A DNA stretch of 64,000 bases, from positions 869 to 64,868 of IMG/VR virus record IMGVR_UViG_3300047550_002841. One strand, written 5' to 3'. Shown here piece after piece: positions 20,901 to 61,505 of this stretch (positions are counted from its first letter, which is position 1; the number at the start of each line of letters is the position of its first letter). A model generated the notes under the pieces. It did not search any database, had not been told where the DNA came from, and saw only the letters and a program-made list of their open reading frames with translations. The DNA comes from a virus (Duplodnaviria > Caudoviricetes). The position numbers and the translations under genes were made by a program.

Positions 20901-22636
20901 AAACGATTGCCACGCCAAACACTTGGTATTTGTTTAATTTCAAGACTGTGGGTAATTTGAGATGCCCACTGCGTCAAATCAGCATCGACCATTTCTTCAA
21001 TGTTTGAAATAAATAGTCGATTACTGTTGATTCGCAAACTCTTCACTTTTGTCACTTTTGCTGTAAGAGCTAGTATTTCTGCTGGGGACAATGGGAAATT
21101 GTCTTGACCATTGTTGCTGTGAACAACTTCAATTGATGTTTCGTTATTCAAACGATATCTCTGAACCATTGAAGCAGTAAAAGTATCTCCTTCATATTCA
21201 ATAGCAACCAATTCAAAATAAGCGTATTCTCCCGGGGGAATGTTATCTACTCTGAGTTTTATTGATTTGTTTGTCAGAGTCCCCGGCTGATCACCTTTTA
21301 CTAAAGAAGCACTAGTTGTGTTTGTGCTAAATACATTAATAAGACCACTAGGATACAAATAATCTGTACCCACAAAATCATCGGTCACAAAACGACCAGA
21401 ATATCTTTTGTTACCACACTTCAGTGATCCACCCCCTTCAGTACTTTCCAAGTAGGTAATTGTAGCAGATGGTGTATCTACGAACAGGGCTGTTTCTTTA
21501 TCTACTTTAGATATATCAATAGTGCCACCGTAAGCAGTCAATACTCCATCCTGCACATAAGGGTATGGTACACTCAGTGCTCGGGGTTTATTGTAGTTGT
21601 CAGTCCAATATATATTGACATCTTGCGTACGTTTTTCTACGTCAGCTTGTATCTGATAATCAACATTAAATCCTAATCTCTTAGATTTTAACAGCCTTGT
21701 ATATGTATACGAATCTGTTGCCGAGTTATATTGAACTACACCAATTTCACTTAAACTACGAAACGGTGTGATATAACTTGCTGATAGATAATTTGGAGTA
21801 GCCAAAAAGACAATGGTATCATCGCCCACACTTTCCATTCCGATAATTTTATACTTCGCCACTAACGAAGTAAAATCTACCCACTCAGAAAGTTGAACAA
21901 GTTTATCGATTATGTTTCCTGACTCAATAATCTCAAAATCATCCCATGTAGTGTGCGATACATCAAAATATCCGCTTTCACTATCGATGTAGGTAAATGA
22001 AGTATAAACAAATCCAGCACTAAACGCAGTAAGAATCGTCTGTATTTGTGTAGTAAGTGAATTCACAGGAGTCGATGTCAACTCTTGTGAGCCAGAACCT
22101 GCAGAAGTAATGTCTATAATTGAAGTTAACGCTGCATTAGAATACAACTCAATAACAGTTCCAGAAATAACTTTTACATAGTAAGATGACCCAGATACAA
22201 GTGGTGTCGCTGCCGAACCAAATAAATTCAAGTAAGTTACAAGCTGACCATTGGAAAATGAGTGAGCACCTCCAAACGTAATTCTATTTAAAACTGTATC
22301 AATACTAGAAATCAAAATGCTAGTGGGCGATAACGCGGCTGTATAAGTAGTAGGACCACTTAATACGTTGTTACGATAAATGCCAATAGATCCATTAATT
22401 AAATATGGGTAGGTGGCTTTTACATATACTCTCCAAACAGTTTCTGTAGAAGTAGGATCAGGTATAGTTACTTTTAGACTATTTCCCTTCATAGGAGAAA
22501 CAGCCTGCAAATTAGACGATGAATCATCTCTATGTCTAATATTTTGGGCATCTATATAATTACCACCAGATACACCCTGTGGGTCTGTATCCTTATCCAT
22601 GATACCATTCTGAAGTAATTTTACGTGTATTCCCAT
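17915..22636 (-). CDS. Tail nozzle / stabilization (tail tubular B-like) protein
   Basis: 1573 aa, beta-rich; N-terminal GIMDKDTDP...YIDAQNIRH, internal YWTDNYNKPR and GYMMNDTYRFGI, C-terminal RLWGRYLKIKL as in crAss-like stabilization proteins. Confidence 0.75.
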   Translation of the reverse strand: MGIHVKLLQNGIMDKDTDPQGVSGGNYIDAQNIRHRDDSSSNLQAVSPMKGNSLKVTIPDPTSTETVWRVYVKATYPYLINGSIGIYRNNVLSGPTTYTAALSPTSILISSIDTVLNRITFGGAHSFSNGQLVTYLNLFGSAATPLVSGSSYYVKVISGTVIELYSNAALTSIIDITSAGSGSQELTSTPVNSLTTQIQTILTAFSAGFVYTSFTYIDSESGYFDVSHTTWDDFEIIESGNIIDKLVQLSEWVDFTSLVAKYKIIGMESVGDDTIVFLATPNYLSASYITPFRSLSEIGVVQYNSATDSYTYTRLLKSKRLGFNVDYQIQADVEKRTQDVNIYWTDNYNKPRALSVPYPYVQDGVLTAYGGTIDISKVDKETALFVDTPSATITYLESTEGGGSLKCGNKRYSGRFVTDDFVGTDYLYPSGLINVFSTNTTSASLVKGDQPGTLTNKSIKLRVDNIPPGEYAYFELVAIEYEGDTFTASMVQRYRLNNETSIEVVHSNNGQDNFPLSPAEILALTAKVTKVKSLRINSNRLFISNIEEMVDADLTQWASQITHSLEIKQIPSVWRGNRFGKGDTNKTYPNYRFGEYQDPQNVLNYTGYMMNDTYRFGIQVQWKKTGKWSSPYWVDDIRFDLSATNCTSPTRRSANNITTTNFTNLDSDYVNIYYPKFHNINLDYQVDGEPLYRLIKAYRIVRCDRIPEVLATGLLVGGVREDTDPGLGVDNLIPYHKDVVRTPSFTFSTFPSNYCRRDHSLAFRTSSYQNDIMLGNTDNSEFGYFHSPDMYFNQVQYTYVAGDKMKVLSVPVPYDEYTLQGFNTGDYESVHQEYTGYFKNTLVPYTDFTIAEAEKFQTGEARPFGGMDKVKNGISVPPEGRTYASVNPFFSNMKACTVFKLTTKLSTIPGYTGLYATGSGTFNKEGLVYAQIFRDKGNTAKYPANKEQSVYETTNHLYIMTGNERGIQSNVSVFGGDVFTQKSHLKMRMSTYNSLNYGFGLAYSFYSQNISNTQMFYTIDHNDEQEGPGFVYPQYMEKFITGINEAGYKRAGNAYIRDWSPTFTGVATLASNVVTYAELPQGAWGTGLLYWLEQWPEVDNQNNYDSQFSVIDNVFTETGFDPNSRWDGKRPASIRFSQVKSTGSERDNYRVFKPIDVVDLDTNQGEIVDIVTVNSNLYSLQPDAFIRHYVGDTQVVNSDSGTELIIGTGGVLNNKGQQLSSFGATNKFAIAKGKTFTGDENLYWWNSRAKKLIRFAGNGVQVISDKGLISYLMNNTDWHTRQDQPITGQGVVIGYNQRFYEVVMSFTAVDPSISEFQTYTDTSYLTFVQYPINSLVVNSHSGDVLDFNYYGEPEVADRHISGVPFVYLKTVNNLDTINSVPQFGATWANRWQKLTPDTHPQYFKIFTLVYDEVKGGFIGFMTEYPNIITSRGNTYYTSKPDDQNKIYVANSGNYSTFYGVQYNGHIEGVVNIDPNLSKNFEAVQVVSDITPERLDFATRDHVSFLTSAEFEELEDFYYAPIKNDSTGTSVNSNDTSRLWGRYLKIKLRFAPNIFQKLINYVVKYRPNPRLYNK

Positions 22637-27006: not shown

Positions 27007-28368
27007 TTAAGCGATTAATTCAACCAATCCGCAACGCTCAGCAGCGCAATACAGACCGCAATCAGAAAGAATGTGGAAATCCACACCATCAACATCGCTT
27101 GAAGCCATAGATCCGCTCATTCCGTTAGCAATTACTTGCTTCAAAGAAGAAGGATTAGAATCTTGCAAGCCGATCATACCGGGGACGTAAGCTGCCAACA
27201 TTTCATCATTGTTGAAGTGATACTTCTGCAAAGGAGAAATAGTTCCGCTACCATCAGCAGCAGGGATTGGAGTCAAATCCAATACATACATGCTGTGAGA
27301 CTGACGAGGCTTACCAGTAACACCAGACAAATCGCCTTTGAATGCATCGTCATCCAACAATGCCCAACGAACGAAGTCAATTTTGATACCAGCATAGCTG
27401 TAAGTCATTACATTCAAACCTTCAACTGATACACCACCCAAAGTGTTGGTATTACCAGCGTACTGAATGTAAGCAGACAACAAAGTTTGCAAACGAGCCA
27501 TCATAGCAGTACCCATCAAAGCGACAAGGTTACGACCATTTTCAGCACTCTTACGAACCAAAGTTTCCAAGAAATCATTAAACTGAGTTTGAGTGATTTC
27601 AGCAGTCAAAGGCAAGTATACACCGCCATTGTTGATGATAGACCAACGCAAACCAGCAGTAGTGTATGATTCACCTTGAGGACCGCTGATGATAGCACGC
27701 TCAGAGAATGCATATTTGAATTCCAAACTCTTAGAGAATTTACGGAGAGTCAAATCATCATATGAACGGTACCAGAAATCACCCTGCCACTTAACGAAAG
27801 AAGAAGCACGATCTCTACGAGCTTGGCTTGAGCTTTCACGAGTGATAGCAGTGTAAGTGTAATCAGTTTGTGGAACAAAGTTCAAAGGAGTTTTACCATT
27901 GCTGTAGCGGTTAGCAGAAGAGTCAAACAATACTTTTGCCATACTACCAGCCAAGAAGTGGGTAGCAGTAGCGAAAGTGGTGCTCACTCGCTTAACAATG
28001 ATCAAGTTTCCACCGCCAGAAGGCTTGTCAACGATGATACCTTGTACCATGTTGTTATCAGCAATAATATCACCGACACGGAAGTTAGATGCATCATCAA
28101 GAGTAACCTGCAAAGCTTCACCAGTGGCATAGCCAGTTGGAGTGGTAGAAGCAGCAGCCACACGAGAATAAACAGAAAGATTTCCAAGTGCACTGATTTC
28201 TACTTTAGGCTGAGGGCTTGAAATAGAAGCAGACAATTTGGAAGTCAACTGAGTCAAAACATTGTACCCATAATCTTGGGCGTAAACCATAGCCATTTTA
28301 TTAGGCAGGCTCAACCCCCTAAGGAGGAGCGACTGGTTTAAATCGAGGTTAGTAACTGGACTTGCCAT
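27007..28368 (-). CDS. Major capsid protein
   Basis: 453 aa in portal-scaffold-MCP order; strongly biased codon usage; LEFKYAFSER...TTAGLRWSI segment consistent with HK97-fold MCPs. Confidence 0.8.
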   Translation of the reverse strand: MASPVTNLDLNQSLLLRGLSLPNKMAMVYAQDYGYNVLTQLTSKLSASISSPQPKVEISALGNLSVYSRVAAASTTPTGYATGEALQVTLDDASNFRVGDIIADNNMVQGIIVDKPSGGGNLIIVKRVSTTFATATHFLAGSMAKVLFDSSANRYSNGKTPLNFVPQTDYTYTAITRESSSQARRDRASSFVKWQGDFWYRSYDDLTLRKFSKSLEFKYAFSERAIISGPQGESYTTAGLRWSIINNGGVYLPLTAEITQTQFNDFLETLVRKSAENGRNLVALMGTAMMARLQTLLSAYIQYAGNTNTLGGVSVEGLNVMTYSYAGIKIDFVRWALLDDDAFKGDLSGVTGKPRQSHSMYVLDLTPIPAADGSGTISPLQKYHFNNDEMLAAYVPGMIGLQDSNPSSLKQVIANGMSGSMASSDVDGVDFHILSDCGLYCAAERCGLVELIA

Positions 28369-32442: not shown

Positions 32443-32450
32443 TATATTTG
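32443..32450 (+). promoter_or_regulatory. TAnnTTTG promoter element for the SSB/recombination operon
   Basis: TATATTTG about 50 nt upstream of the ATG at 32501. Confidence 0.55.
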
Positions 32451-32500
32451 TGTTAACGTCTCTCGGACACAAAAATAGGAAACCTTTATTACTTATATAT

Positions 32501-33166
32501 ATGGCACTCGGAAACAACTCGTCCTCAATTTACTTGGACTTAAGAAACGGTAAAGTTTATCGTTACAGCAAAACAAACGAACCCGGCACAACAGCAATTC
32601 AAACTGCAAAGGGCGAAACACGGTACTTCTACATCTACGATTTTGTAGAGGGGCATGTCACAAACTTCTCAACTCGACAGGAGGACATTCAAGGAAAACT
32701 TAAACTGAAGTTTCAGATCCATTTGAAAGATGGCAATGATGACTACATAGTTAAGATGGATGTAGACTCATCTTACTTCAGAATGTTCTGCAGCGTAATC
32801 CCCAACATTGATTGGAATTTCCCTGTAAGATTAATACCACGGATCAAGGAAGAGCAAGGCGTAAAGAAGTCCTCTTTAATTACAGTAAACAATGGTAAGC
32901 CATGTAAGTTTGCTTTCACCAGAGAGAATCCTAACGGCAAGCCGGAAGTAACCTTTACTAAAAACAAAAAGGGTGAAGTAATTGACATTGATCGTGAGGA
33001 GGAGCAACAGTTCTTCTTCAACTTGATTGCAGATGCCAAAACCAAATTGGTACATCCAGCTGTGGCACAACCTGCTCCTACAAGTGACCGTGTTGCAACA
33101 AACGTAAAGCCTGCTCAAAACTTTTCAGAGGATGAAGCCTTTGAAGATGATGACTTACCATTTTAA
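32501..33166 (+). CDS. Single-stranded DNA-binding-like protein
   Basis: Likely start MALGNN at 32501; beta-rich body, flexible linker and acidic C-terminus EDDDLPF. Confidence 0.65.
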   Translation: MALGNNSSSIYLDLRNGKVYRYSKTNEPGTTAIQTAKGETRYFYIYDFVEGHVTNFSTRQEDIQGKLKLKFQIHLKDGNDDYIVKMDVDSSYFRMFCSVIPNIDWNFPVRLIPRIKEEQGVKKSSLITVNNGKPCKFAFTRENPNGKPEVTFTKNKKGEVIDIDREEEQQFFFNLIADAKTKLVHPAVAQPAPTSDRVATNVKPAQNFSEDEAFEDDDLPF

Positions 33167-33175
33167 TATTATTGA

Positions 33176-33514
33176 ATGAAAAGCTCATCAAAGATTGCTA
33201 ACCCCATGTTAGCAGAAGCCATCAGCAATACCATTGTCAAACCATCTAAACGCCCTCGTATTAAAAAGGATGAGGCTGCTCCTGAAAATGAAGTAGCCTC
33301 CCTCCCCGGGGGAGAAGCTCTACAGAAAGTAGAGAAGAAGGTTTTTGATCATATACAACATCATTACGACAAGGATGCTAAGATCCAGAAGCAATCGTGC
33401 ATGAAAGCCGCAGCTTCCGTTTATAATCCACCTTTTGGCGAGGAACCAGAAATCATAGCCAACAAGGTAATTCAAATCGCAGAAAAACTATACCAATGGG
33501 TGAACTCAAACTAA
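33176..33514 (+). CDS. Hypothetical protein (recombination module)
   Basis: 112-aa ORF with C-terminal KQSCMKAA...AEKLYQWV. Confidence 0.5.
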   Translation: MKSSSKIANPMLAEAISNTIVKPSKRPRIKKDEAAPENEVASLPGGEALQKVEKKVFDHIQHHYDKDAKIQKQSCMKAAASVYNPPFGEEPEIIANKVIQIAEKLYQWVNSN

Positions 33515-34497
33515 TCAACATCGACAAAGAAACCAACTATGACGAATGGCTAGCATTTCGTCAAAATGGTCTCGGGGCTTCAGACATAGGCACACTTATG
33601 GGTCTGAACCCCTACAAATCTAAAATTGAACTATTCTACCAAAAGGTAGGAGTCATACCCATCAAACAAGATGAAAACATTCCCATGTTCTATGGCAATC
33701 GTCTAGAAGACTTTGTAGCCAATATGTGGGAGTATTTCGATGGAGAAGATCCCGAATCTGTAATCACCAACTACAACGCAGGAAATAAACTAAAACACTG
33801 CAAACCAGTAACAGGTTACATCGTCAATAGCGACTATCCCAATTTGTTCCTTTCTCCAGACCGCATCATCGTAAACAAAGAAACTGATAAACTAGTTTAC
33901 GGTGGTCGCCTAATTGAAAAAAATTTCAAGGGCGTTCTAGAAGTTAAAACCATTAACGGTTTCGCATCCAAACAATGGGACGGTGGTATACCCCCATCCT
34001 ACGTTACTCAACTCCAAACCTACCTCTTCGGTCTGAATCTTACCTACGGTGAAATTGTTCTCTTTGAAGATGGTCGTAAACTCTCCTCCATCCACATGGA
34101 TCTTAACCCTACACTCAAACAACAAATCCTTGAAGCAATGGAAGACTTCTGGGAACGTGTAGATGCCGCTAAAGCTGATCCCGAAAACATTCAACTCTAT
34201 GAACCTGAACCCGATGGTACAGAAGCATTTGAAAAGTTCCTCAACGACAAATACGCAAACTCAGAAATTAAAACCCTACAAGGTACTCCCGAACTTCTAC
34301 AAATAGCTGTCACCCACAAAGTAATCGCAGCCGAAATAAAAGAACTAGAAGCCAAAAGTCGTGAATGCTCTAACCTCCTTAAAAATACCCTCAAAGAACA
34401 TGAAGCACTAGACTTCGGTCAAAGCGGTAAAGTAATATGGCGTACAGACTCTAGAGGCATTAGATCACTCCGTAATAACATTATTATCAATGAATAA
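33496..34497 (+). CDS. YqaJ/lambda-exonuclease-like 5'-3' exonuclease
   Basis: EWLAFRQNGLGASD, GNRLE, SPDR, LEVKT, YVTQLQTY motifs. Confidence 0.9.
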   Translation: MGELKLINIDKETNYDEWLAFRQNGLGASDIGTLMGLNPYKSKIELFYQKVGVIPIKQDENIPMFYGNRLEDFVANMWEYFDGEDPESVITNYNAGNKLKHCKPVTGYIVNSDYPNLFLSPDRIIVNKETDKLVYGGRLIEKNFKGVLEVKTINGFASKQWDGGIPPSYVTQLQTYLFGLNLTYGEIVLFEDGRKLSSIHMDLNPTLKQQILEAMEDFWERVDAAKADPENIQLYEPEPDGTEAFEKFLNDKYANSEIKTLQGTPELLQIAVTHKVIAAEIKELEAKSRECSNLLKNTLKEHEALDFGQSGKVIWRTDSRGIRSLRNNIIINE

Positions 34498-34714
34498 CAA
34501 AAATGTTCCCCCTGTAGTCCGTAGAATACTATCCAATAGAGACGAAATACTCTACCACCTGTCTCGTGAAAATCGTACAATAGAACAAGAATATAACCTC
34601 GTCCTTAACAAACAATCTAAACTGCCTAAACGTCTACGTGACTTTATTATCCAATACTACGAAGTTCAATCAACTCAACTGCCAAATGAAACTGACTCCC
34701 CTATCCCCCAGTGA
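34490..34714 (+). CDS. Hypothetical protein
   Basis: 74-aa ORF overlapping both neighbours. Confidence 0.5.
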   Translation: MNNKNVPPVVRRILSNRDEILYHLSRENRTIEQEYNLVLNKQSKLPKRLRDFIIQYYEVQSTQLPNETDSPIPQ

Positions 34715-35237
34715 AAAATCCTTCCTAGATCAAATTAGATCCTACTTCCAAGACTCTATCGGTGAAATACCTTGGGAAAAAGACTACATAATCCTACGCC
34801 TTACCCAAAAATCATCCAAAGACTTCTCCGATATCATCTACATCCCCACCCTACAGCCTGACCCAAACGAATACTACTACCAGACATTTAAATGTAACTC
34901 CTTTAAACACGACCAAACCAAAATTATTACAGGCTCTTTCACCTACCGCCTAGCATCTAGGTTCAACTGCGTCTACGCACAACAAATATGCCCGGTGTTC
35001 TACGAAAATACACTCTCCCACTCTATCCTCTCTGATCACTATCAACCCAAACTGAACGGTCTAAACATCCTATTTCACCCAATACACTCCATTCTGCCCA
35101 TTATGAGCCCCATTTCAGCATCCTCCAAAGGCTCAATCATCGTAGAACCCAAAGCTTACCCCACTATCAAAGAACACTACCGCAAAGGACAAACAGAAAT
35201 TAAACTCTTCGTTGTCGATATGCACCTTTTACTCTGA
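34686..35237 (+). CDS. Degenerate YkuD-like lysin paralog (catalytic Cys replaced by Ser)
   Basis: Likely start MKLTPL; colinear motif similarity to 846-1433 (see findings). Confidence 0.45.
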   Translation: MKLTPLSPSEKSFLDQIRSYFQDSIGEIPWEKDYIILRLTQKSSKDFSDIIYIPTLQPDPNEYYYQTFKCNSFKHDQTKIITGSFTYRLASRFNCVYAQQICPVFYENTLSHSILSDHYQPKLNGLNILFHPIHSILPIMSPISASSKGSIIVEPKAYPTIKEHYRKGQTEIKLFVVDMHLLL

Positions 35238-43542: not shown

Positions 43543-44502
43543 ATGAAAAACACAAACCAAATCAACAACGAATTCACAATGAACACACCTGCCTTGTCTA
43601 TCGAAAACTTTGAGAAGACTATGAATCTTCTTGAAAGTACTGGTCTTAACTGGGAAGTTAAGAAAGAACAATTCTCACATCCTTCGGGATTGACTACTCC
43701 ATTTTATGGTATCTTCCGATACGATCAAAATGCTAACACTCCAACCCAATGCTTGGGGTCTGTAAAAGAAAGGTATACACCTTTCCAAAACTGGGAACTT
43801 GCCGACACCATTGTTCGTGCTACTGAGGGAATTGGTATTACTACCAACCGGGGCGGTCAACTTAACAACGGCAACAAGGTTTACCTTCAAGCACAATTGC
43901 CCGATGAATATGTGGGTAAGTCTGACATTAAACGCTGGGTTACAGTCTTGAACTCACACGATGGTTCATCATCCATTGGCTTTGGTTCTACCAATACTGT
44001 GGTTGTATGTCAAAATACTTTCCACAGAGCCTTCAAAGAAACTGATAAGTTTCGCCACACTGCCAGTGCAAAAGAGCGTATTGAAATTGCCATCCGTCAG
44101 TTCCAAGACACGATCAATGCAGACAAGAATCTATTCGATTCCTTCAAGCGTATGGCAGAACTGAAACCCGATGAGAGTTTGGTACAAGCGGTCATAAACA
44201 AAATGTTTAAGGTCGATGTAGTCAAGAACTCACAAGAAGATATTTCTACTCGTAGAATGAATCAAATCCAATCGTTTGCACAAGCCTACAACATCGAGCG
44301 TGACCTTGAGGGTGACAATGTTTGGGGATTGTTCAATGCCGTAACTCGTTACACCAACCACATGGCTGCTCCTTCAGAGCAATCACGCAAGACTAACTAT
44401 CTAATGACAGGTGGTGGTTACGACATTAACAACACAGCTTATGATACAATCATGGGTTGGCTTGAGGAACGCACCGCTAAGACTGTGTTTTCGTTTTCAT
44501 AA
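43543..44502 (+). CDS. DUF932-family phage/plasmid protein
   Basis: GLNWEV, LGSVKERYTPFQN, NSHDGS, VVCQNT, HT and WGLFNAVT motifs; likely start MKNTNQ. Confidence 0.85.
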   Translation: MKNTNQINNEFTMNTPALSIENFEKTMNLLESTGLNWEVKKEQFSHPSGLTTPFYGIFRYDQNANTPTQCLGSVKERYTPFQNWELADTIVRATEGIGITTNRGGQLNNGNKVYLQAQLPDEYVGKSDIKRWVTVLNSHDGSSSIGFGSTNTVVVCQNTFHRAFKETDKFRHTASAKERIEIAIRQFQDTINADKNLFDSFKRMAELKPDESLVQAVINKMFKVDVVKNSQEDISTRRMNQIQSFAQAYNIERDLEGDNVWGLFNAVTRYTNHMAAPSEQSRKTNYLMTGGGYDINNTAYDTIMGWLEERTAKTVFSFS

Positions 44503-44518
44503 TTATCAATTGTTGGTT

Positions 44519-44547
44519 GCCCCTCACCATTAGGTGGGGGGCTTTTT
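44519..44547 (+). terminator. Rho-independent terminator
   Basis: GCCCCTCACC-ATTA-GGTGGGGGGC-TTTTT. Confidence 0.75.
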
Positions 44548-44559
44548 AAAAACACTACT

Positions 44560-44772
44560 ATGGCTAAAAAAATAAACAAAGAAGTATCATTAGAAAAATC
44601 TTTTAAGGACATGGATGACATGGAGCGTAGAATCTTCTTGACTTATGTCTCCGAACACCTATTACATTACGACACCCATTTCAAAGAAATGGTAGATATA
44701 CTAACTAAATGGGAAACCACAAACCCTATACCATCAAGACTTGAATACACTATCCACGAAACACTCAACTAA
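44560..44772 (+). CDS. Hypothetical protein
   Basis: 70-aa ORF. Confidence 0.55.
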   Translation: MAKKINKEVSLEKSFKDMDDMERRIFLTYVSEHLLHYDTHFKEMVDILTKWETTNPIPSRLEYTIHETLN

Positions 44773-44776
44773 GATC

Positions 44777-45418
44777 ATGAAAAAACAAAAACGCACACTA
44801 GTAATTCATCCTAAGGATGTAACAACCGATTTCTTAATTCCTATTTACAAATCACTGAATCCAAATACTACCACCATCCTCACTACTTACGAAGAAGTAG
44901 AAAAGAATTCACTTGCCACCCAAATCAAAAAGCATGATCGCATTATCATGCTGGGTCACGGATTCCCCGGGGGTCTGTGGGGTTTCGATCGACTGCTGAT
45001 AAACGACTCAAACGCAGAATTACTTCGTAACAAAGAATTAGTTGGTATTTGGTGCCATGCAAATCAGTTCTTTGAAAAGCATGGTTTGCTCGGAGTCTAC
45101 TCCGGCATGATAATATCAGAGCCTCTAGAAGCTATATTCTATAGTGTTCCTTACACCGACAGCATGATTCATGAGTCAAACACTTTGTTTACTAAAGCCG
45201 TAACTCAGTCAATTACTTCGACTACTCCAATTGAAGTCTTCCGTAGTATGTACCGAAGTGAAAGCAATCCAGTTATGATTTACAATCAAGACAATTTCTT
45301 TCATGCTTATGAAGTACATCAATTAGAAGACAATGAGCAAGCAATGGTTGACTACAATGCGATGGAGGAGGAATGGGAAATGGATAACTATAACGAAATA
45401 GCACATGAGCAACAATAA
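44777..45418 (+). CDS. Putative caspase/gingipain-fold (clan CD) cysteine peptidase
   Basis: Strand-His-Gly (IIMLGHG) and strand-Cys (VGIWCHA) dyad arrangement; likely start MKKQKR. Confidence 0.5.
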   Translation: MKKQKRTLVIHPKDVTTDFLIPIYKSLNPNTTTILTTYEEVEKNSLATQIKKHDRIIMLGHGFPGGLWGFDRLLINDSNAELLRNKELVGIWCHANQFFEKHGLLGVYSGMIISEPLEAIFYSVPYTDSMIHESNTLFTKAVTQSITSTTPIEVFRSMYRSESNPVMIYNQDNFFHAYEVHQLEDNEQAMVDYNAMEEEWEMDNYNEIAHEQQ

Positions 45419-45665
45419 ACAAAGTATGAAACTATACACAGAAGAACAAGTAAAGCATATGTTAATTGGATTAATTGGTTCAGCAAAAACTGTAGATGAT
45501 TTTTTGCATAGGTATTATACCCCCATCGAACTACCAACCCCCATCGAACTACCTAATGATGATGAGATACATAAACAGGCAATTAATTACTCGGGTTTTG
45601 ACAATGAATTTAAGGCAGGCGCAAAATGGATGCGTGATAAAATACAAGGAGGTAACAATGAGTAA
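45405..45665 (+). CDS. MSNNKQ cassette protein 1
   Basis: MSNNKQSMKLYTEEQ...TPIELPTPIELP...FKAGAKWMRDKIQGGNNE. Confidence 0.7.
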   Translation: MSNNKQSMKLYTEEQVKHMLIGLIGSAKTVDDFLHRYYTPIELPTPIELPNDDEIHKQAINYSGFDNEFKAGAKWMRDKIQGGNNE

Positions 45666-45888
45666 TAAACAAATAATAGCAACACGCAAATGGATAGTTG
45701 AACACATCACATATAGTGATGGAACAACTGCAATTAGCAGAACAAACGATGGATTTAATTCTTTTGAATTAATGGGTATACTTGAATTATCTAAAGACGA
45801 CATAATTAATCAAATAAAAGGAAATGTCAAGCCCGAAGTAGTTAAAAGAAAAGTAATTTTAGAGAAAAAGTCAAACCAAAAACAATGA
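45658..45888 (+). CDS. MSNNKQ cassette protein 2
   Basis: Start MSNKQII lies within the repeat. Confidence 0.7.
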   Translation: MSNKQIIATRKWIVEHITYSDGTTAISRTNDGFNSFELMGILELSKDDIINQIKGNVKPEVVKRKVILEKKSNQKQ

Positions 45889-45971
45889 GCAACAATAAAC
45901 AAAGTATGCCAATTTCAGTTAAAATATTTTTATTTTTTTTATTAATTGCTTACATACACAGAAAGAGTTAA
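45885..45971 (+). CDS. MSNNKQ cassette micro-protein 3 (28 aa, hydrophobic)
   Basis: MSNNKQSMPISVKIFLFFLLIAYIHRKS. Confidence 0.5.
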   Translation: MSNNKQSMPISVKIFLFFLLIAYIHRKS

Positions 45972-45973
45972 TT

Positions 45974-46129
45974 ATGATTAAATACACAGAAAGAGAAATA
46001 GAACACGAAAGAAAATATCACTATTACAAGGGTTATTCTAAAGGTGTATTGACTACATTTATTTTAATGAGTTTATATTATATTTTTATTGTAGTATTTG
46101 ATTATTATTTAAATGGAGGTAACAAATGA
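45974..46129 (+). CDS. Small membrane protein ending in the repeat (GGNK)
   Basis: MIKYTEREIEHERKYHYYKGYSKGVLTTFILMSLYYIFIVVFDYYLNGGNK. Confidence 0.6.
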   Translation: MIKYTEREIEHERKYHYYKGYSKGVLTTFILMSLYYIFIVVFDYYLNGGNK

Positions 46130-46461
46130 GCAACAATAAACAAAACGAAAACAATAACGCTAAACATCAATTTAGCAACACAGAACCTTTGACACACGCA
46201 CAGAAAATCGCTGTTGCAAATAAAATGAGCAACAATAAACAAGGTAGTGTAAAGTGGTTATTTGAACAAGTGTGTAATTTAGATTGGAAAAATATTCAAG
46301 GAGAAAAAAAGTTGGAAATTCTTGAACAAGCCAAAGCAATGCACAAGGAGGAAGTGACATCATTTACTGCAGATTGGAGTATTCAGTATAAATATGAAAA
46401 TGGCAAAAACATTAATCAATTTTACTACGAAACATTTGGAGGTAACAATGAGCAACAATAA
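46126..46461 (+). CDS. MSNNKQ cassette protein 4 (two fused cassettes)
   Basis: Second in-frame MSNNKQ at 46225; W...EQAK.M...YYETFGGNNEQQ. Confidence 0.7.
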   Translation: MSNNKQNENNNAKHQFSNTEPLTHAQKIAVANKMSNNKQGSVKWLFEQVCNLDWKNIQGEKKLEILEQAKAMHKEEVTSFTADWSIQYKYENGKNINQFYYETFGGNNEQQ

Positions 46462-46678
46462 ACAACAAACGGCAGTGGAGTGGTTTGCGGAACGCATACA
46501 AAGTGATAAAATATTCAACTTTGAAAAAGTTTTAGAACAAGCCAAAGAAATGGAGAAGGAAAGAATTGAAACTGCATACAACAAAGGAACAGTTCATGGA
46601 ATTGATTATCCTGAAAGTACACTACCAATAACTGGTGAACAATACTACAACGAAACCTACGGAGGAGGTGAGCAATGA
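46448..46678 (+). CDS. MSNNKQ cassette protein 5
   Basis: MSNNKQQTAVEWF...EQAKEMEKERI...EQYYNETYGGGEQ. Confidence 0.75.
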   Translation: MSNNKQQTAVEWFAERIQSDKIFNFEKVLEQAKEMEKERIETAYNKGTVHGIDYPESTLPITGEQYYNETYGGGEQ

Positions 46679-46902
46679 CAAACAATAAACAACAAACGGA
46701 AGCCGATGTTTTAGAATTGGCGATGAAACTTTATCCATTTAGTAATTCTGAAAGGAATGCCTTTATTGATGGGTATAACAAAGCAAATGAAATAGACAAG
46801 GAAGAAATAGTCAAAGCATTTGACCGTGGGCGAGTTTGGAATATGTCTTGGGATGGAGAATCTTATTATGAGGAAATTATAATTAAAGGTAATAATGAAT
46901 AA
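46675..46902 (+). CDS. MSNNKQ cassette protein 6
   Basis: MTNNKQQTE...AFIDGYNKA...ESYYEE...GNNE. Confidence 0.7.
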   Translation: MTNNKQQTEADVLELAMKLYPFSNSERNAFIDGYNKANEIDKEEIVKAFDRGRVWNMSWDGESYYEEIIIKGNNE

Positions 46903-46915
46903 TTCGGAGGTAACA

Positions 46916-47194
46916 ATGAGCAACAATAAACAAATAAAAAACGGAGATGTATTTGACATAGGTCAAACAGTAAATGGCGTAAGCAGGTTTCTTTGGTTCA
47001 ATAATGCATGGTATTACTTTGAAGAAAGGTTATCAAGGGAATACGAATACGACCAAGATGAATTAACAAAAACTGTACAAAACTGGAATGACCTTGAAGA
47101 AATTACATTTATTAAAAACATATTTGATACAACAAATATAAAAATATTAGCAGTTAATCACTTGCCGTTAGGTAGCACTTTAGAAGGGAGGTAA
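46916..47194 (+). CDS. MSNNKQ cassette protein 7
   Basis: MSNNKQIKNGDVFDIGQTVNG. Confidence 0.7.
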   Translation: MSNNKQIKNGDVFDIGQTVNGVSRFLWFNNAWYYFEERLSREYEYDQDELTKTVQNWNDLEEITFIKNIFDTTNIKILAVNHLPLGSTLEGR

Positions 47195-47196
47195 CA

Positions 47197-47391
47197 ATGA
47201 GCAACAATAAACAAATCATGAAAAACTTTATTATCGTACTCTCAACAATCCTTAGCGGATTGCTCTACGGATGGTGCATTGTGCACTATCCCATCACTGC
47301 ACAGATCATCGCTGGAGGCATGGGCTTGTCCTTTCTCTTCGTGATAATGATCGCCTTTTACTCACTGGAAAATAAAAATGAAAATGACTAA
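47197..47391 (+). CDS. MSNNKQ cassette protein 8 (two TM helices)
   Basis: MSNNKQIMKNFIIVLST; two hydrophobic segments. Confidence 0.7.
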   Translation: MSNNKQIMKNFIIVLSTILSGLLYGWCIVHYPITAQIIAGGMGLSFLFVIMIAFYSLENKNEND

Positions 47392-47950
47392 TAACAATCA
47401 ACAACTTGACCTATTCGATGGTATCGAGAACAAAGATTTCTTGGAATACCACAAGACCAATCCACACCTTTACGATGCATTTAAAGCAGTAGCTTTTGAT
47501 GCAATGAAAATGGGCTTTAAAACTTATGGTGCCAACGGCATTTTTGAAATCATTCGCTGGAAGCGTGCTGAGCGTGGTGACGGTGAGTTCAAAATCAACA
47601 ACAACTTCGCTCCGCTTTTTGCTCGACTCTTTGCCAATGAGTTCCCTCAGTATTCTAGTTTTTTCAGATACCGCAAATCAAAGTTTTCGGAGTATCTCAA
47701 ATCACTACCCATGCAAGAAAAACGCATGCATGAGTTAGTATTCTTCTATGAAAACGCCTCGTTTGTTTTGACCATAGCTCCCACTGAAGATGATTGGTGG
47801 ACTACCGTAAATGTAACTGAAAATGGGCGAACTTTTTTCTTTGATGTCCACTATTGTGAAGACTACAACGAAATCTGCGTTTATCCTTACAACGGCAAAC
47901 ACACCACAGAAAGTTATATCAAAGCAATTTATACTCAAAAGATCATATGA
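47378..47950 (+). CDS. Hypothetical two-domain protein with QLDLF motif
   Basis: MTNNNQQLDLF...YHKTNPHLY...IFEIIRW...FKINNNF...ARL domain followed by a second domain. Confidence 0.65.
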   Translation: MKMTNNNQQLDLFDGIENKDFLEYHKTNPHLYDAFKAVAFDAMKMGFKTYGANGIFEIIRWKRAERGDGEFKINNNFAPLFARLFANEFPQYSSFFRYRKSKFSEYLKSLPMQEKRMHELVFFYENASFVLTIAPTEDDWWTTVNVTENGRTFFFDVHYCEDYNEICVYPYNGKHTTESYIKAIYTQKII

Positions 47951-48028
47951 ACATAGCATATCGGTTTGCCATTCCTACAGATTACTGCCTTTATCAAGGC
48001 AATGTAACACTACCAATACGAATTAAAT

Positions 48029-48160
48029 ATGTTTACAATTTTGCGGTATATCTTCAGGAATAAACCTCACAAGGAGTTTCTTGTCCTTGAGACTGCTATG
48101 ATTATCTATTACAGTCTTTGGGCAATAGGCATCTATGTGCTATACAGATTAATTCTATGA
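48029..48160 (+). CDS. Small membrane protein (43 aa)
   Basis: MFTILRYIF...YSLWAIGIYVLYRLIL; ATGA overlap with the next gene. Confidence 0.4.
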   Translation: MFTILRYIFRNKPHKEFLVLETAMIIYYSLWAIGIYVLYRLIL

Positions 48161-48489
48161 CTCAACTTAAGATTAGAAAAAAGAATGTTGAAGTAATCAA
48201 CATTGTCTTGAGTAGTGAGCAGTACACAAAGTTAAAGAAGCTGGCTGATGAGAATGGTTTTTCATCGCCAGCTAATTTAATTGATGATATCGTTCACTCT
48301 TATTTTAATAAGCACCGAACTAGAATTCGCAAAACCGTGGAGGAGTACGAGAAATCCATTAAAATGCCAGTGCAGATATCACAGAATAACTGGCACATGC
48401 TATCACGCTACTCTGAATCTACCAAAATATCAAAGGGAACCTTTATACATTTAATACTACGAGAGATAATTAAAAAAATACCAAAATGA
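48157..48489 (+). CDS. Tandem ribbon-helix-helix DNA-binding protein
   Basis: Two strand-helix-helix units (INIVLSSEQYTKLKKLA..; MPVQISQNNWHMLSRYS..); coupled to the recombinase. Confidence 0.55.
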   Translation: MTQLKIRKKNVEVINIVLSSEQYTKLKKLADENGFSSPANLIDDIVHSYFNKHRTRIRKTVEEYEKSIKMPVQISQNNWHMLSRYSESTKISKGTFIHLILREIIKKIPK

Positions 48490-49175
48490 AACGAGCCGCT
48501 TTTTATACGCGTGTGAGCCACGACAATCAAGTCGAAGATGGATCATCATTAGAAAACCAAAAAGATCGCATAGAAGCGTTCTGTAAGCTAAATAACTACT
48601 CTATAGTAGCATCATTCTCTGACCCCGGAGTCTCTGGTCGTAAGTTTGAAAACAGACCAGAGTTTATGAAGATGATGAAACTCGTAGAGAAAAAACAAAT
48701 CGATGTAATTGTAGTCTATAGTCTATCTCGTTTCGGTAGAAACCTAAAGGATACTTTGAAATGGATATCTTTTCTAGAAAGTAAGGGCGTTTCGTTCTAC
48801 ACATTAGACTTTCAAATAGACACATCTACTTCTCATGGTAAACTTATGCTTCAGATGATGGGAGCCTTTGCTGAATTTGAAAGCAACCAGCGTGGGGAAT
48901 TGATTTCATCTGTGATGAAGTACCTGAAAAAAGAACAGAAAGTTTATTGCGGTCCTACACCTTTAGGGTTTCACAAGAAAAATGGATCTTTGATTGTGGA
49001 TGAAGAAGAAATGAAAATAGTTAAAACTATCTTCAGCTGGAAGAATACTATGCCACACTCTACCATTGCTAGACTTTGCAATGATATGGGGTTTCAGACC
49101 AAGAAAGGCAAGAAGTTCTATCACACCACCATTGATAAAATCGTAAACAATAATATCTATGAACAACATCTTTGA
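48486..49175 (+). CDS. Serine recombinase (resolvase/invertase catalytic domain with short C-terminal DNA-binding domain)
   Basis: YTRVS (catalytic Ser), D.GVSGR..NRP, SRFGRN and AEFE motifs; 229 aa, lacks the Zn-ribbon/coiled-coil of large serine integrases. Confidence 0.92.
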   Translation: MKRAAFYTRVSHDNQVEDGSSLENQKDRIEAFCKLNNYSIVASFSDPGVSGRKFENRPEFMKMMKLVEKKQIDVIVVYSLSRFGRNLKDTLKWISFLESKGVSFYTLDFQIDTSTSHGKLMLQMMGAFAEFESNQRGELISSVMKYLKKEQKVYCGPTPLGFHKKNGSLIVDEEEMKIVKTIFSWKNTMPHSTIARLCNDMGFQTKKGKKFYHTTIDKIVNNNIYEQHL

Positions 49176-49365
49176 GATTTATGATGCTCGTATTGTACAA
49201 GGAGTTACAAACGAGAAACGAGATTATCGTTTGTATGTAAATCAAACCCTAATCGAAAAGCATAGCACCATGGAAGAGGCTATCAAACAACTATATCAAA
49301 TTCAAGAACAGATCAATGAAAAAAGAAACAATAAGAATATATTCAACTTCCGGTTTTGTTTTTGA
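49159..49365 (+). CDS. Hypothetical protein
   Basis: 68-aa ORF overlapping both neighbours. Confidence 0.5.
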   Translation: MNNIFEIYDARIVQGVTNEKRDYRLYVNQTLIEKHSTMEEAIKQLYQIQEQINEKRNNKNIFNFRFCF

Positions 49366-49612
49366 TATCAGTTACCAATGGGTCATGGAGCACATGGGTA
49401 TAAAAGACCATAGCAAAACAAAAACTCTCGAGGTAATTGAATATCTTCGCAGACTCTCTTGGTATGAAATCCTACCAGTTCTTAAACTAGTAGCAGTTAT
49501 TGAGGAAGACTGTGCCGATACTTTGAATGCTTGTGTATTCGATGTTGTCGAAGACCCATTTAATTATCCCATCACCAAAAAGAAAGCACTGCAATTAAAA
49601 CTAAACTCATGA
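49316..49612 (+). CDS. Hypothetical protein
   Basis: 98-aa ORF. Confidence 0.5.
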   Translation: MKKETIRIYSTSGFVFDISYQWVMEHMGIKDHSKTKTLEVIEYLRRLSWYEILPVLKLVAVIEEDCADTLNACVFDVVEDPFNYPITKKKALQLKLNS

Positions 49613-53779: not shown

Positions 53780-54280
53780 ATGACTATTCACGATTACACT
53801 CACGAAATGATCGAAGCTATTGTAAATACAGCGAAACTGGACTCATTAACCAAACATAAAATCGTCAGAAAAATTCATTCGATGAAAATCTACAAGGATT
53901 TTAGAACCAGAAAGTTAGAAGAAGTGAAACCTCAAAAACGCAAACGACCTTCGGCACCAATGAGTTACAACATATTGCCACCTTCGGTCAAGGAAGTAAT
54001 AAAACTAGCCTGTGAAAAACATGAAATTGATCTGCATGAATTCTGCAGTAACCGAAGACTAACCGATATAACTGATTGCCAAAGGCAAGTAATCTACTTA
54101 TTGCATAAGGAGTTTAAGTACAGCTGTACCAAAGTAGCATCATGGTTCATTAAAGATCATAGCACTATTCTCTACGCATGCAAGAAGCACAACGACCTAG
54201 TTGATACGAACCGCATGTATGCACGGTTGTATCAAGTCATTGTAGATCAGACCAGAGAGAAATCTATCTTTGTAATTTAA
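53780..54280 (+). CDS. DnaA domain-IV (C-terminal HTH)-like DNA-binding protein
   Basis: RQVIYLL...SCTKVASWFIKDHSTILYACKK resembles DnaA RQ.AMYL...G..FG.RDHTTV.HA. Confidence 0.8.
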   Translation: MTIHDYTHEMIEAIVNTAKLDSLTKHKIVRKIHSMKIYKDFRTRKLEEVKPQKRKRPSAPMSYNILPPSVKEVIKLACEKHEIDLHEFCSNRRLTDITDCQRQVIYLLHKEFKYSCTKVASWFIKDHSTILYACKKHNDLVDTNRMYARLYQVIVDQTREKSIFVI

Positions 54281-59848: not shown

Positions 59849-60282
59849 TTATACACTTTAAAGGGAGCAGTTTTATTTTTATAGCCATCGTAGTCCTTAC
59901 GGAAAGCTTCTAAGCGTGGCTCAATCTCATCACTCTTAATAATCCAAAACTGTGCTCCAACCTTTTTAGCTTTCTCTATCTCTTGTTTATCATCAGACGA
60001 AGAGATGATACCTATGACTACACCGTTTCCGTATTCGCCATTGATCTTACGAATCAGCTCAATGCCATCAAAAGAAGAACCTATAATATTTAAATCTACG
60101 AATACACACTCGGGTTTATCTTCTTCTGGGCCCTCATCAAACCATTTTTTAAATAGGCGATCAGCTTCGTCAGAAGAAGTCAAACTTTGTAAACTTAGAG
60201 TTATATCTAAAAGACTGCAAGAATCTTCAAACACAAGATGAAACAAATCTTCATCGTCAACCAATAGTATAGAATCAATCAT
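59845..60282 (-). CDS. Single-domain response regulator (CheY-like receiver)
   Basis: ILLVDDE, phospho-acceptor FVDLN, DGIELI, ISSS and GA..WIIK. Confidence 0.92.
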   Translation of the reverse strand: MIDSILLVDDEDLFHLVFEDSCSLLDITLSLQSLTSSDEADRLFKKWFDEGPEEDKPECVFVDLNIIGSSFDGIELIRKINGEYGNGVVIGIISSSDDKQEIEKAKKVGAQFWIIKSDEIEPRLEAFRKDYDGYKNKTAPFKVYK

Positions 60283-61505
60283 AATCTTATTTTAATTTTT
60301 GTACCCACATCAAGTTTTTCTACCTCTATTTTGAAGTCATGTTCTTCCATAATAGCCGTACATATATTCAAACCTAAACCAGATCCGGCTTCTGCTTGAC
60401 CTTCTTTACGAATATATGGCTGAGACCATGTTTCAAAATCTTTCTGAGACATCCCTCTTCCGTTATCTTGGATAACAAAATAGTTATTTTCCACAAAGAT
60501 ATGGACTAATTTTGTTGCCGAATCGTTGTATTTTAAACCGTTTCGGATCAAATTATCCACTGCTGTACAGAATAAACTTTCATTGACTAAAATAGTGGGC
60601 ATATCATCTATAACCACTTGCTTTTCATATGATGTACTAGACAAATAAGATTGTAAAATTTCTTTTAAGTTGCACTCAGTCCTCTCTAACTGAGCATCTT
60701 TTTTTACCAGATTCGTAAACTCCTTAACCCCACGATACACCTTTTGTGTGTGTACCAAACCTTCCTCAATCATTCTTAGAGGTGCATCCACCTTCAATGT
60801 TTTAATTTGCTCCTGAGTCAATCTTCGTTTCAATGAACTCAAGCCTCTGGGTATGTACGTATTAATACCAGAGTGCATATCATGACGCAATATTTTTGCC
60901 GCATGCTCTAAGTAAGAATTCTTCTTTGCGATTTCAACCTCAATGTTCTTCTTAGCGGTTATATCTGTTGCTATCTTAAGCACCCTATATACCTCACCAT
61001 AAGGATCCATAATTGGGTTGTAGTTCCCGTAAATCCAAACTGCCTCACCTTTTTTATTTCTTCTTTTAAATTCACCTGAAACAGACCGTCCTGCTCTAAG
61101 ATTTCTCCATAAACTCACATGTTCCTCCTGCGAAAAATCATGAATTAAATCACGATGATTCATTTGCTTCAGTTCACTGTTGCGATACCCAGTGATGTCT
61201 GAAAATATATCATTAGCATTTAAAATACTCCCATCTGTATCTAGTTCTACTAATGCGTTAGATAAATTAATAGCCAGTAGCGTATCGTCAACTGACTGTG
61301 CTTTGTATTGTGCTTTTCTTACAAACTCAACTGCCCCTATAAAAAAGAAAGGTATGAATGCAATAATACATCCATACCCAAACTCTATAATTAATAACGA
61401 TGGTTTAAAATATCCAAATACTACTGCACTCTGAACCCCGAAGAAAGTCATCATGATTGCAATCGCAATCAATAGGGAGCACTTAGCCAGTAGTGATAGT
61501 TTCAC
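60279..61505 (-). CDS. Membrane PAS-domain sensor histidine kinase
   Basis: Two TM helices, PAS/PAC domain, H-box LRHDMHS, N-box NLIRNGLKY, G1 DNGRGM, G2 GSGLGL; GTG start. Confidence 0.93.
   Translation of the reverse strand: MKLSLLAKCSLLIAIAIMMTFFGVQSAVVFGYFKPSLLIIEFGYGCIIAFIPFFFIGAVEFVRKAQYKAQSVDDTLLAINLSNALVELDTDGSILNANDIFSDITGYRNSELKQMNHRDLIHDFSQEEHVSLWRNLRAGRSVSGEFKRRNKKGEAVWIYGNYNPIMDPYGEVYRVLKIATDITAKKNIEVEIAKKNSYLEHAAKILRHDMHSGINTYIPRGLSSLKRRLTQEQIKTLKVDAPLRMIEEGLVHTQKVYRGVKEFTNLVKKDAQLERTECNLKEILQSYLSSTSYEKQVVIDDMPTILVNESLFCTAVDNLIRNGLKYNDSATKLVHIFVENNYFVIQDNGRGMSQKDFETWSQPYIRKEGQAEAGSGLGLNICTAIMEEHDFKIEVEKLDVGTKIKIRL

Follow-up and report, generated by a model that had tools for sequence, protein, structure and literature searches.

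The window analysed here comprises 64,000 nucleotides (nt) of the IMG/VR virus record IMGVR_UViG_3300047550_002841 (Duplodnaviria; Caudoviricetes), which is 95% complete and is covered by the window almost entirely. Between 45405 and 47214 it carries an array of small genes, the junctions of which are marked by copies of an 18-nt core, ATGAGCAACAATAAACAA. The core encodes MSNNKQ, the first six residues of the downstream protein (hereafter the tag), and in most copies also holds the stop codon of the upstream open reading frame (ORF). According to comparisons with related and unrelated phages, the core probably serves both as a short-homology linker and as a stop/start module for translation, a reading to which a probability of roughly 0.6 is assigned. 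It appears comparably probable that small early accessory genes have accumulated in the array as in a hyperplastic hot spot, with portable stop-start junctions.

The core occurs in seven exact copies (starting at 45405, 45885, 46126, 46225, 46448, 46916, and 47197), all on the plus strand. They are joined by a two-mismatch form, ATGACAAACAATAAACAA, which encodes MTNNKQ and starts at 46675 on the same strand, and by a ninth copy, ATGAGTAATAAACAA, which encodes MSNKQ, starts at 45658, and is shorter by one codon. The 8 core matches compare with 0.21 expected by chance, and this number was reached in none of 100 shuffles. Outside the array, the 64,868-base record is free of the core (8 forward and 0 reverse matches in total, with 0 and 0 for the reversed control). 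An earlier note on this DNA, made from its letters alone, had reported about ten copies of a 28-mer at gene junctions. Nine copies between 45405 and 47214 stand, but the supposed tenth, at 47378, is off at 5 of the 18 core positions. The repeat is real as well; the 28-mer, however, matches only three times (46438, 46906, and 47187), even with up to 3 mismatches allowed, and the actual unit is the 18-nt core. The Shine-Dalgarno (SD)-like GGAGG ascribed to the module is found 5' of 6 of the 9 copies, but not at 45405, 45885, and 46225.

Many copies of the core are preceded by (A)AGGAGGTAAC(A)A and by a conserved C-terminal tail belonging to the gene in front. Within the 28-mer, AACAAT occurs twice in direct orientation, and inverted arms are lacking. 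Successive copies are spaced by 253, 227, 241, 99, 223, 227, 241, and 281 nt. The block was also said to be purine-rich relative to the flanking early genes, which is confirmed by GC content, GC skew, and AT skew (0.27-0.35, +0.07 to +0.24, and 0.21-0.29, respectively), the upstream sequence having a GC content of 0.36-0.43 and a negative GC skew.

The anatomy of the junction was counted over 1.05 Mb of loci from 119 sources. In 102 of the 126 unique copies the upstream ORF stops within the core, 51 times at the A-TGA overlap with the start codon and 51 times at a TAA 11 nt into the core, which gives the upstream protein the ending ..EQQ. The remaining copies are 10 in-frame fusions, 10 with a stop just before the ATG, and 4 without an upstream ORF. 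The module thus has stops in both other frames, as had been proposed. In the window, upstream ORFs indeed terminate within it (..HEQQ, ..GGNNE, ..GGNK, ..GGNNEQQ, and ..EGR), and in-frame arrival gives a fusion, 46126-46461 being one ORF with two tags. The start context of the module is A-rich and unstructured. Of 143 ORFs that start with the tag, 56 have an SD-like 5-mer in front, compared with 19 of 405 ORFs without such a start in the same loci (length 150 amino acids (aa) or more). The GGAGGT doubles as the Gly-Gly codons of the conserved tails GGNNE(QQ) and GGNK. Tagged ORFs have a median length of 80 aa, and 16 of the 145 complete ones are leader-like peptides of less than 20 aa; 7 of these read MSNNKQSMK followed by a stop and overlap the next start.

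The flanks of the core were compared for 139 unique copies (9,591 pairs), taken as exact matches, with the core therefore identical by construction. Flanks of 60 nt on each side were regarded as alike at 80% identity or more and as unlike below 50%. Both flanks are less than 50% identical in 8,913 pairs, and 65 pairs share the upstream flank only, 46 the downstream flank only, and 16 both. In the one-flank pairs, similarity ends 0-12 nt off the core edges. Hybrid heads, such as MSNNKQ-QTAV-KLYTEE, occur as well.

Judging from nucleotide alignments, genes of the main payload family appear to be mosaics themselves, with half-cassettes exchanged at a middle block and not at the core alone. The 3' half of cassette A5, from 46533-46535 on, is 94-98% identical at the nucleotide level in five loci with unrelated 5' halves, and in two further loci similarity begins at 46546 and 46558. 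The left break of these half-cassettes coincides with the conserved EQAKEMEKE block. Within the family, EQAKEMEKE and QYYNETYGG are blocks conserved at the nucleotide level (46316-46349, 46527-46560, and 46637-46678 in the window), with hypervariable stretches between them.

A search with D190, a backbone gene next to the array, leads to loci of the same lineage with the synteny DUF932, g70, U225, a variable slot, D190, a ribbon-helix-helix (RHH) gene, a serine recombinase, and, farther on, primase/helicase. The slot contains nine tagged starts in the window and five tagged or near-tagged starts in the relative G001 (flanks 72-87% identical in nucleotides, capsid 90% in aa), the two sharing the first cassette alone. 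In locus L171 (84% nucleotide identity over 5.76 kb) the alignment with the window begins no earlier than 47195, at the last core, and the genes upstream are different. In L174 and L175 the slot is taken by one untagged 65-aa ORF, U225 is 178 aa long and devoid of its acidic tail, and no core-like 18-mer is present in 10.5 kb. L176-L179 have no array, and g70 is directly followed by D190. Together with the copy-pair comparison, this series bears out the suggestion that relatives vary in cassette content and that homology breaks at the repeat. The array appears to be an insertion hot spot, the left edge of which lies within the 3' end of U225 and the right edge of which is the last core. The 3' tail module of U225 (45318-45404, plus strand), ending in MEEEWEMDNYNEIAHEQQ and a stop, is associated with the array and does not belong to the backbone: a tail of about 100 nt precedes the core in 8 other loci (80-90% nucleotide identity) and is missing from the 178-aa homologue in the array-less L174.

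Assembled contigs from other studies locate the same edges. In Logan assemblies of four runs, each from a different further study, long contigs with near-identical flanks break off at 45397/45434 and resume at 47187-47219. A contig of run X6 (10,416 nt; 4 differences in 896 nt) and one of run X5 carry on upstream of 47205, a position within the last core, with sequence unlike that of the window. The array is spanned by none of the pieces listed, and several of its inner parts have little or no cover in X3-X6 (46706-46822, for example, in all four), which is no sign of absence. Joints that skip parts of the array have sides of less than 35 nt, probably stem from conserved blocks of other phages, and were left out of account. 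As for G001, the first 82 nt of its contig are a copy of its positions 1042-1123 (the tail of the last cassette). The 18-mer connects this copy with the head of the first variable cassette, and the last 115 nt of the contig repeat that same head behind an MKLYTEE gene. Such an end junction has the form expected if the 1,041-bp block that separates two cores had been circularised or duplicated in tandem, and it is possibly a trace of such an event.

Many carrier contigs start or end within tens of bases of a core, which suggests that assemblies break at tagged arrays. Another carrier record, G003 (loci L011, L019, and L027), has a direct terminal repeat, and its 127-nt end overlap begins at the 18-mer. 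About 31 kb away it contains the same tail with the core (170 nt, 97%) and the core with an MKLYTKEDF head (160 nt, 99%), with one extra cassette in between. This pattern may represent either a converted patch or a pair of cassette presence and absence in one record.

The payloads behind the tag are diverse. Grouping of 115 unique tagged payloads gives 24 clusters, namely, two large families of 55 and 26 members, two clusters of 3, eight pairs, and 12 singletons. The larger family is characterised by the pattern VEWL..EQAKEMEKE..QYYNETYGG, and the smaller by MKLYTEE..AKWMRDKIQGG. The presumed mixture of unrelated and paralogous payloads in the window is borne out: once the tag is removed, only A4b and A5 (32% identity, E 1e-3) and A5 and A6 (33%, E 6e-4) are recognisable as paralogues, with no relationship among the remaining cassettes. 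The tag is facultative, since one and the same payload may be found with it, without it, or behind a decayed form. Among 83 unique members of the MKLYTEE family, 27 have the exact tag, 21 have it with 1-4 mismatches, and 35 have none, the latter mostly starting directly at MKLYTEE. D190 is tagged in G001 (MSNNKQNIMTNNNLQ..) and untagged in the window, and the homologue of cassette A8 in L171 has a decayed core that lacks the ATG and starts at its own Met. A Met of the payload's own next to the tag, noticed earlier in the contexts S-MK, S-MP, and I-MK, is present in all three.

Conservation at the DNA level exceeds what the peptide accounts for. Among the 179 18-mers coding for MSNNKQ in the 1.05 Mb of loci, 160 are the canonical string. 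After removal of one exact copy per source (119), 41 of the 60 remaining MSNNKQ 18-mers are still canonical, compared with the 1.6% that would be predicted from the codons used in long ORFs of these loci. A second discrete allele, ATGACAAACAATAAACAA (MTNNKQ), has 44 copies there. Two exact alleles and no fuzzy consensus point to copying, with identity by descent, over convergent selection for a motif. Paralogous payloads that follow identical cores share only about 32% of their aa. One-mismatch variants of the core (n = 41) comprise 16 synonymous and 25 nonsynonymous changes, none of them in the ATG.

The core is shared by phages that are otherwise unlike. In IMG/VR, the exact 18-mer is found in at least 118 contig stretches, with 153 occurrences there, compared with 7 stretches of one copy each for the reversed letters. 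Among the matches listed, 41 records of at least 20 kb with the 18-mer (21-233 kb, 13 of them at least 90% complete) were taken as the carrier set. A homologue of the window's capsid protein is present in only one of the 41, G001, with 90% aa identity. When the window was compared with six small carriers that have complete genomes, in a noisy analysis based on all ORFs of at least 50 aa, two unrelated groups plus the window emerged. Among the families that they share with the window are the two cassette families, a family of 202-aa proteins, and small membrane-like proteins, and no shared recombinase turned up. The module thus appears to be common to a phage gene pool of unrelated lineages. 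Searches of GenBank phages returned only 11 weak partial matches to a 33-nt junction, in unrelated phages and none covering the full core, and no tblastn match for A5 or A1. No description of the module was found in the literature, including a full-text search of articles for the tag.

A genome collection of 596 Gb holds the exact 18-mer in 37 stretches from 36 contigs, two of the stretches (L143 and L164) being the same contig. Five of the 36 contigs were judged to show a true junction context, and the others resemble chance matches. Since 4 of these 5 are in bins of metagenome-assembled genomes (MAGs) labelled Bacteroidales, Bacteroidia, Chitinophagaceae, or Lishizhenia, a Bacteroidota host is likely. 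A scan of 68 candidate starts in the window revealed a match of at least 6 SD letters at one tag junction and at 17318 only, and leaders are A-rich. This SD-less pattern with A-rich leaders is described for Bacteroidia, the ribosomes of which are SD-blind unless bS21 is missing, according to the available text of PMC13000457 and PMC13000453. The window has no transfer RNA and no bS21 gene.

The earlier note had placed a 229-aa serine recombinase downstream of the array and suggested an integron-like, plug-and-play system. The gene is there (48486-49175, plus strand; PF00239, E 8e-42), but the proposed co-occurrence of repeat and recombinase does not hold: PF00239 occurs in 1 of the 41 carriers and, if only the 13 near-complete records are counted, in 1 as well. 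Because the recombinase (71-79% aa identity) is conserved, together with the RHH gene, in five loci of the lineage (L174, L175, L176, L177, and L179) from which core-like 18-mers are absent, it is a backbone gene, unlinked to the module and judged to lie outside the cassette system. It matches the phrog_95 profile of large serine integrases at positions 87-313 of 651 only, is 229 aa long in every relative seen, and belongs to a lytic-looking phage. The RHH call itself is weak (PF16777, E 4e-4, below the cut-off; Arc-like phrog_582, E 2e-5).

The phage's own single-strand DNA-binding protein (SSB) and YqaJ system had been offered as a second candidate. A YqaJ/RecE-like recombination exonuclease is indeed encoded at 33496-34497 (plus strand; Pfam and PHROGs) and would be a candidate for a general recombination function that is not specific to the module. 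However, no SSB was detected with Pfam or PHROGs, and the three ORFs beside the exonuclease (32450-33166, 33176-33514, and 34638-35237) have no match to an annealing protein or SSB in either. The YqaJ domain is present in only 8 of the 41 carrier records (5 of the 13 near-complete ones), and YqaJ/RecE is therefore not the dedicated partner of the module. Tyrosine integrase PF00589 was not detected in the phage's own record, which is 95% complete (control detected in 14 of 14 genomes). Crossover sites of serine recombinases have dyad symmetry around a central dinucleotide. At the junctions neither an inverted repeat nor dyad symmetry is seen, and four junctions folded as single-stranded DNA give 0 to −0.3 kcal/mol, not better than shuffles. 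What remains of the integron-like picture is the repeat as a junction and the variable cassettes; the site-specific mechanism is not supported, as neither a hairpin nor a linked recombinase is found.

As a short-homology linker, the core would offer a patch for general recombination, either by phage or host annealing and strand exchange or by template switching during replication, and no dedicated site-specific recombinase would be involved. Exchange between copies within one genome would produce deletions, tandem duplications, or circles, and exchange between co-infecting phages would swap cassettes. A cassette placed between two modules would be terminated and re-initiated automatically. Repeated exchange would homogenise the module by concerted evolution, which may account for its unchanged sequence in front of payloads that have diverged to about 32% aa identity.

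Several points weigh against the linker. Its support is entirely comparative or contig-based, with no recombination event seen directly; contigs cannot show minority variants, and the end junction of G001 could be an assembly artefact. A length of 18 nt is short for homologous exchange, though homology often reaches into the conserved tails and heads. Carriers have no recombination gene in common (YqaJ in 8 of 41, no shared recombinase in the six small genomes). With two families making up 81 of the 115 unique payloads, spread is partly family expansion and not tagging of new genes. Finally, copying is not the only force at work, and the start codon and the peptide or an overlapping frame are under some constraint as well, because 16 of the 41 one-mismatch variants are synonymous, compared with 11-17% by chance according to our own reckoning, and the ATG is untouched.

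Among the alternatives, a primary role in translational control, with mosaicism as a by-product, is unlikely, though it is compatible with the linker. The module would then be the operator of an RNA-binding regulator, or a true-SD start in a host that ignores SD sequences, acting through coupling or special ribosomes. Such a role would agree with the near-absence of SD sequences from the other starts of the phage (one tag junction and 17318 among 68), with the enrichment of SD-like 5-mers before tag starts (56 of 143 vs 19 of 405), with the stop-start overlap in 102 of 126 copies, and with the ATG unhit in 41 variants. Folding is as weak at tag starts as at other starts (mean −1.7 vs −2.1 kcal/mol, with −5.5 for random 50-mers). 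A Bacteroidota-type promoter motif is missing from the array, which fits polycistronic expression. The conditional SD-blindness of Bacteroidia ribosomes (PMC13000453, PMC13000457) is also in line with it, as far as the available text of these papers goes. So is the earlier example of conserved repeats tied to gene starts in Cluster K mycobacteriophages, the start-associated sequences (SAS; PMC3203893). A functional motif should, however, be a degenerate consensus, and two discrete exact alleles (160 and 44 copies) are observed. GGAGG is missing from 3 of the 9 window copies and from about 60% elsewhere, and in the two main families it is at the same time the coding sequence for the Gly-Gly tails. 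The tag may decay while the payload is kept, as in L171, and the record has neither an antisense copy (0 reverse matches) nor a bS21 gene. A more speculative reading, possible but doubtful, is that of a pan-phage cassette adaptor: unrelated phages of SD-blind, probably Bacteroidota, hosts would share a recombinase-free currency for small host-takeover genes. An ORF inserted between two copies would be terminated, re-initiated, and expressed, the unusually strong GGAGG part steering translation of the cassettes to terminating 70S ribosomes or bS21-free ribosomes. If true, cassettes would be expressed by a route that no other genes of the phage, and hardly any of the host, make use of.

Ordinary debris, in which MSNNKQ is simply the N-terminus of one or two expanding paralogous families, spread by tandem duplication and illegitimate joins and without a role of its own, is quite improbable. 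The two families with 81 of 115 payloads, the tandem paralogues A4b, A5, and A6, and the other nucleotide-conserved blocks within the families agree with such an origin; it fits poorly with 22 further unrelated payload clusters, 16 tagged leader-like peptides, and presence or absence of the tag within one family. The canonical codons (41 of 60 vs 1.6% expected) before payloads of about 32% identity, the loss of identity 0-12 nt from the core, and the unrelated capsids of the carriers also count against it. A peptide tag proper, e.g., a signal for targeting, packaging, or degradation, is very improbable. T4 internal proteins reportedly have a capsid-targeting sequence (Repoila 1994, cited in PMC2839356), and both the excess of synonymous changes (16 of 41) and the near-invariant N3, N4, and K5 of the family alignment would suit such a signal. 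Canonical codons are nevertheless kept far beyond protein-level need, the tag is dispensable in three payload families and predicted to be disordered (residues 1-4 below 50 in predicted local distance difference test, pLDDT), 7 copies encode MSNNKQSMK alone, and payloads are both membrane-like and soluble. As for recombination of the repeats as attC-like sites by the serine recombinase and the RHH protein, position speaks for it, the gene lying 1.1 kb downstream in both the window and G001. It is largely refuted by the resolvase domain in 1 of 41 carriers (1 of 13 near-complete), by the five loci that keep both genes and have no core-like 18-mer, by a site without dyad symmetry or hairpin, by breakpoints at other conserved blocks too, and by a record without tyrosine integrase.

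The array itself reads as follows, all features being on the plus strand. Core copy 1 (45405-45422) is an exact 18-mer without GGAGG upstream; it contains the stop of U225 (..EQQ) and opens cassette A1 (45405-45665, 86 aa, MSNNKQ-S-MKLYTEEQV..), a member of the second-largest payload family. A1 holds an exact 17-nt tandem duplication at 45519-45553 (ACCCCCATCGAACTACC twice, with a spacing of 18), which is translated as PIELPTPIELP. It stops (GGNNE) inside the next junction, GGAGGTAACA with the variant core ATGAGTAATAAACAA (45648-45672, repeat family D4), where cassette A2 begins (45658-45888, 76 aa), the payload of which is unrelated to the others. Core copy 3 (45885-45902) opens a 28-aa ORF (45885-45971), followed by A3b, an untagged membrane-like ORF of 51 aa (45974-46129). 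A3b stops (GGNK) at the A-TGA overlap of GGAGGTAACAA and core copy 4, which has one extra A (46116-46143). Core copy 5 (46225-46242) is in frame with copy 4 (fusion 46126-46461) and opens A4b, of the VKWL..YYETFGG family.

The full 28-mer with core copy 6 (46438-46465) contains the stop of A4b (GGNNEQQ) and opens A5 (46448-46678, 76 aa), a member of the largest payload family. Its AlphaFold model has three helices (pLDDT 78.5), with tag residues 1-8 lacking secondary structure. Next come GGAGGAGGTGAGCA and the variant core ATGACAAACAATAAACAA, the MTNNKQ allele (46662-46692), which opens A6 (46675-46902), and the full 28-mer with core copy 8 (46906-46933), which opens A7 (46916-47194, 92 aa). 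Only 3 nt before the junction at 46906, the sequence AAGGTAATAATGAATAA (46886-46902) agrees with GAGGTAACAATGAGCAA in 13 of 17 letters and looks like a decayed second junction; it could have been left behind by a lost cassette or have arisen by chance in such A-rich sequence. The last full 28-mer, with core copy 9 (47187-47214), forms the right edge of the variable block and opens the last cassette, the membrane-like A8 (47197-47391, 64 aa). It is followed by D190 (47378-47950, phrog_13625), the right boundary of the hot spot. Cassette ORFs have no match in Pfam or PHROGs except for phrog_13625 (D190). In the ESM Atlas A5 and A1 fall into unnamed virus-only clusters (A5 0.97, 2,280 members; A1 0.93, 66 members), and a Foldseek search of the A5 model against PDB gives nothing below E 5.7.

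A nucleotide search with 44500-49500 has no match among GenBank phages. The closest relatives of the primase-helicase (32-35% identity) are unannotated faecal phage fragments and phages of Riemerella, Tenacibaculum, and Flavobacterium. A probable major capsid protein of 453 aa (27007-28368, minus strand) matches the crAss-type PF23898 at E 2.9e-4, with 19.8 bits against a cut-off of 27; according to this sub-threshold match, the phage may be a distant crAss-like virus. The structural half includes giant ORFs of 4,148 aa (2628-15074, minus strand) and 1,573 aa (17915-22636, minus strand) in a phage of 65 kb. A 408-aa protein (60279-61505, minus strand) with PAS and HATPase_c domains resembles a sensor histidine kinase, which is unusual in a phage, and a 166-aa protein (53780-54280, plus strand) has the C-terminal helix-turn-helix of DnaA (PF08299, E 1e-10).

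Phage mosaicism is usually ascribed to rare illegitimate joins and selection. To our knowledge, Botstein's alternative of conserved linkers has few concrete examples, promoter-early stem-loops (PeSLs) being one; the "boundary sequences" of lambdoid phages are grouped here with the Botstein/Campbell linkers. An exact, searchable 18-nt linker with a stop/start grammar would be a concrete example of Botstein's type in more than 100 uncultured phage contigs. It could serve as a marker for tracing gene flow among environmental phages and would predict insertion sites of accessory genes, possibly for anti-defence or host takeover. As a natural adaptor, it would be testable as a gene-insertion tool for such phages. 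If the host belongs to Bacteroidia, the occurrence of a strong SD-like element in a genome that otherwise lacks SD sequences is also relevant to the role of such sequences in SD-blind bacteria.

In function the module resembles a system of T4-type phages, in which PeSLs mediate shuffling and mini-circles are formed, according to the available parts of Arbiol et al. (2010, PMC2839356) and Comeau et al. (2014, PMC4122927). As described in the former, short conserved regulatory cassettes bound small ORFans in hyperplastic early regions, and the indels and replacements of relatives map there. Exchange is attributed in the same text to homologous recombination without a dedicated recombinase, neighbouring copies form circles, and its authors draw the integron analogy. 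PeSLs, however, consist of an intergenic promoter and a terminator stem-loop and are transcriptional (same available parts of PMC2839356). In contrast, the module is intracoding (a stop plus the first six codons of the next gene), has no stem-loop, and would act, if at all, on translation. It is also letter-identical across unrelated lineages, whereas PeSLs, in the text available, are found within T4-likes. The promoter motif TTTG..TAnnTTTG, a Bacteroidota-type consensus, has 7 matches in the window and 0 in 45.4-47.4 kb.

The Botstein/Campbell linkers are also short conserved sequences between modules that target recombination while the products stay viable, as summarised in the available text of PMC2839356. 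In that account they are mostly inferred, weakly conserved, and lineage-bound, in contrast to an exact 18-mer with stop/start grammar in carriers with unrelated capsids. As for SAS (Pope et al. 2011, PMC3203893), the parts available describe an asymmetric repeat in one orientation, located in the non-structural half at the starts of many families, with an SD core, an upstream stop sometimes inside, and near-absence from host genomes. It is a different sequence of 13 bp, however, located 3-7 bp before the start and outside the ORF, confined to one cluster, and the same parts claim no role for it in mosaicism. The module, by comparison, takes in the ATG and five more codons and marks mosaic breakpoints. 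Integrons likewise have one-orientation arrays of promoterless single-gene cassettes with a recurring site and a content that varies among relatives. Unlike attC and IntI, the module comes with no tyrosine integrase, hairpin, inverted repeats, or co-occurring recombinase, and its site lies in both neighbouring ORFs. The module thus belongs to none of PeSLs, linkers, and SAS: it functions like the first two and is positioned like the third.

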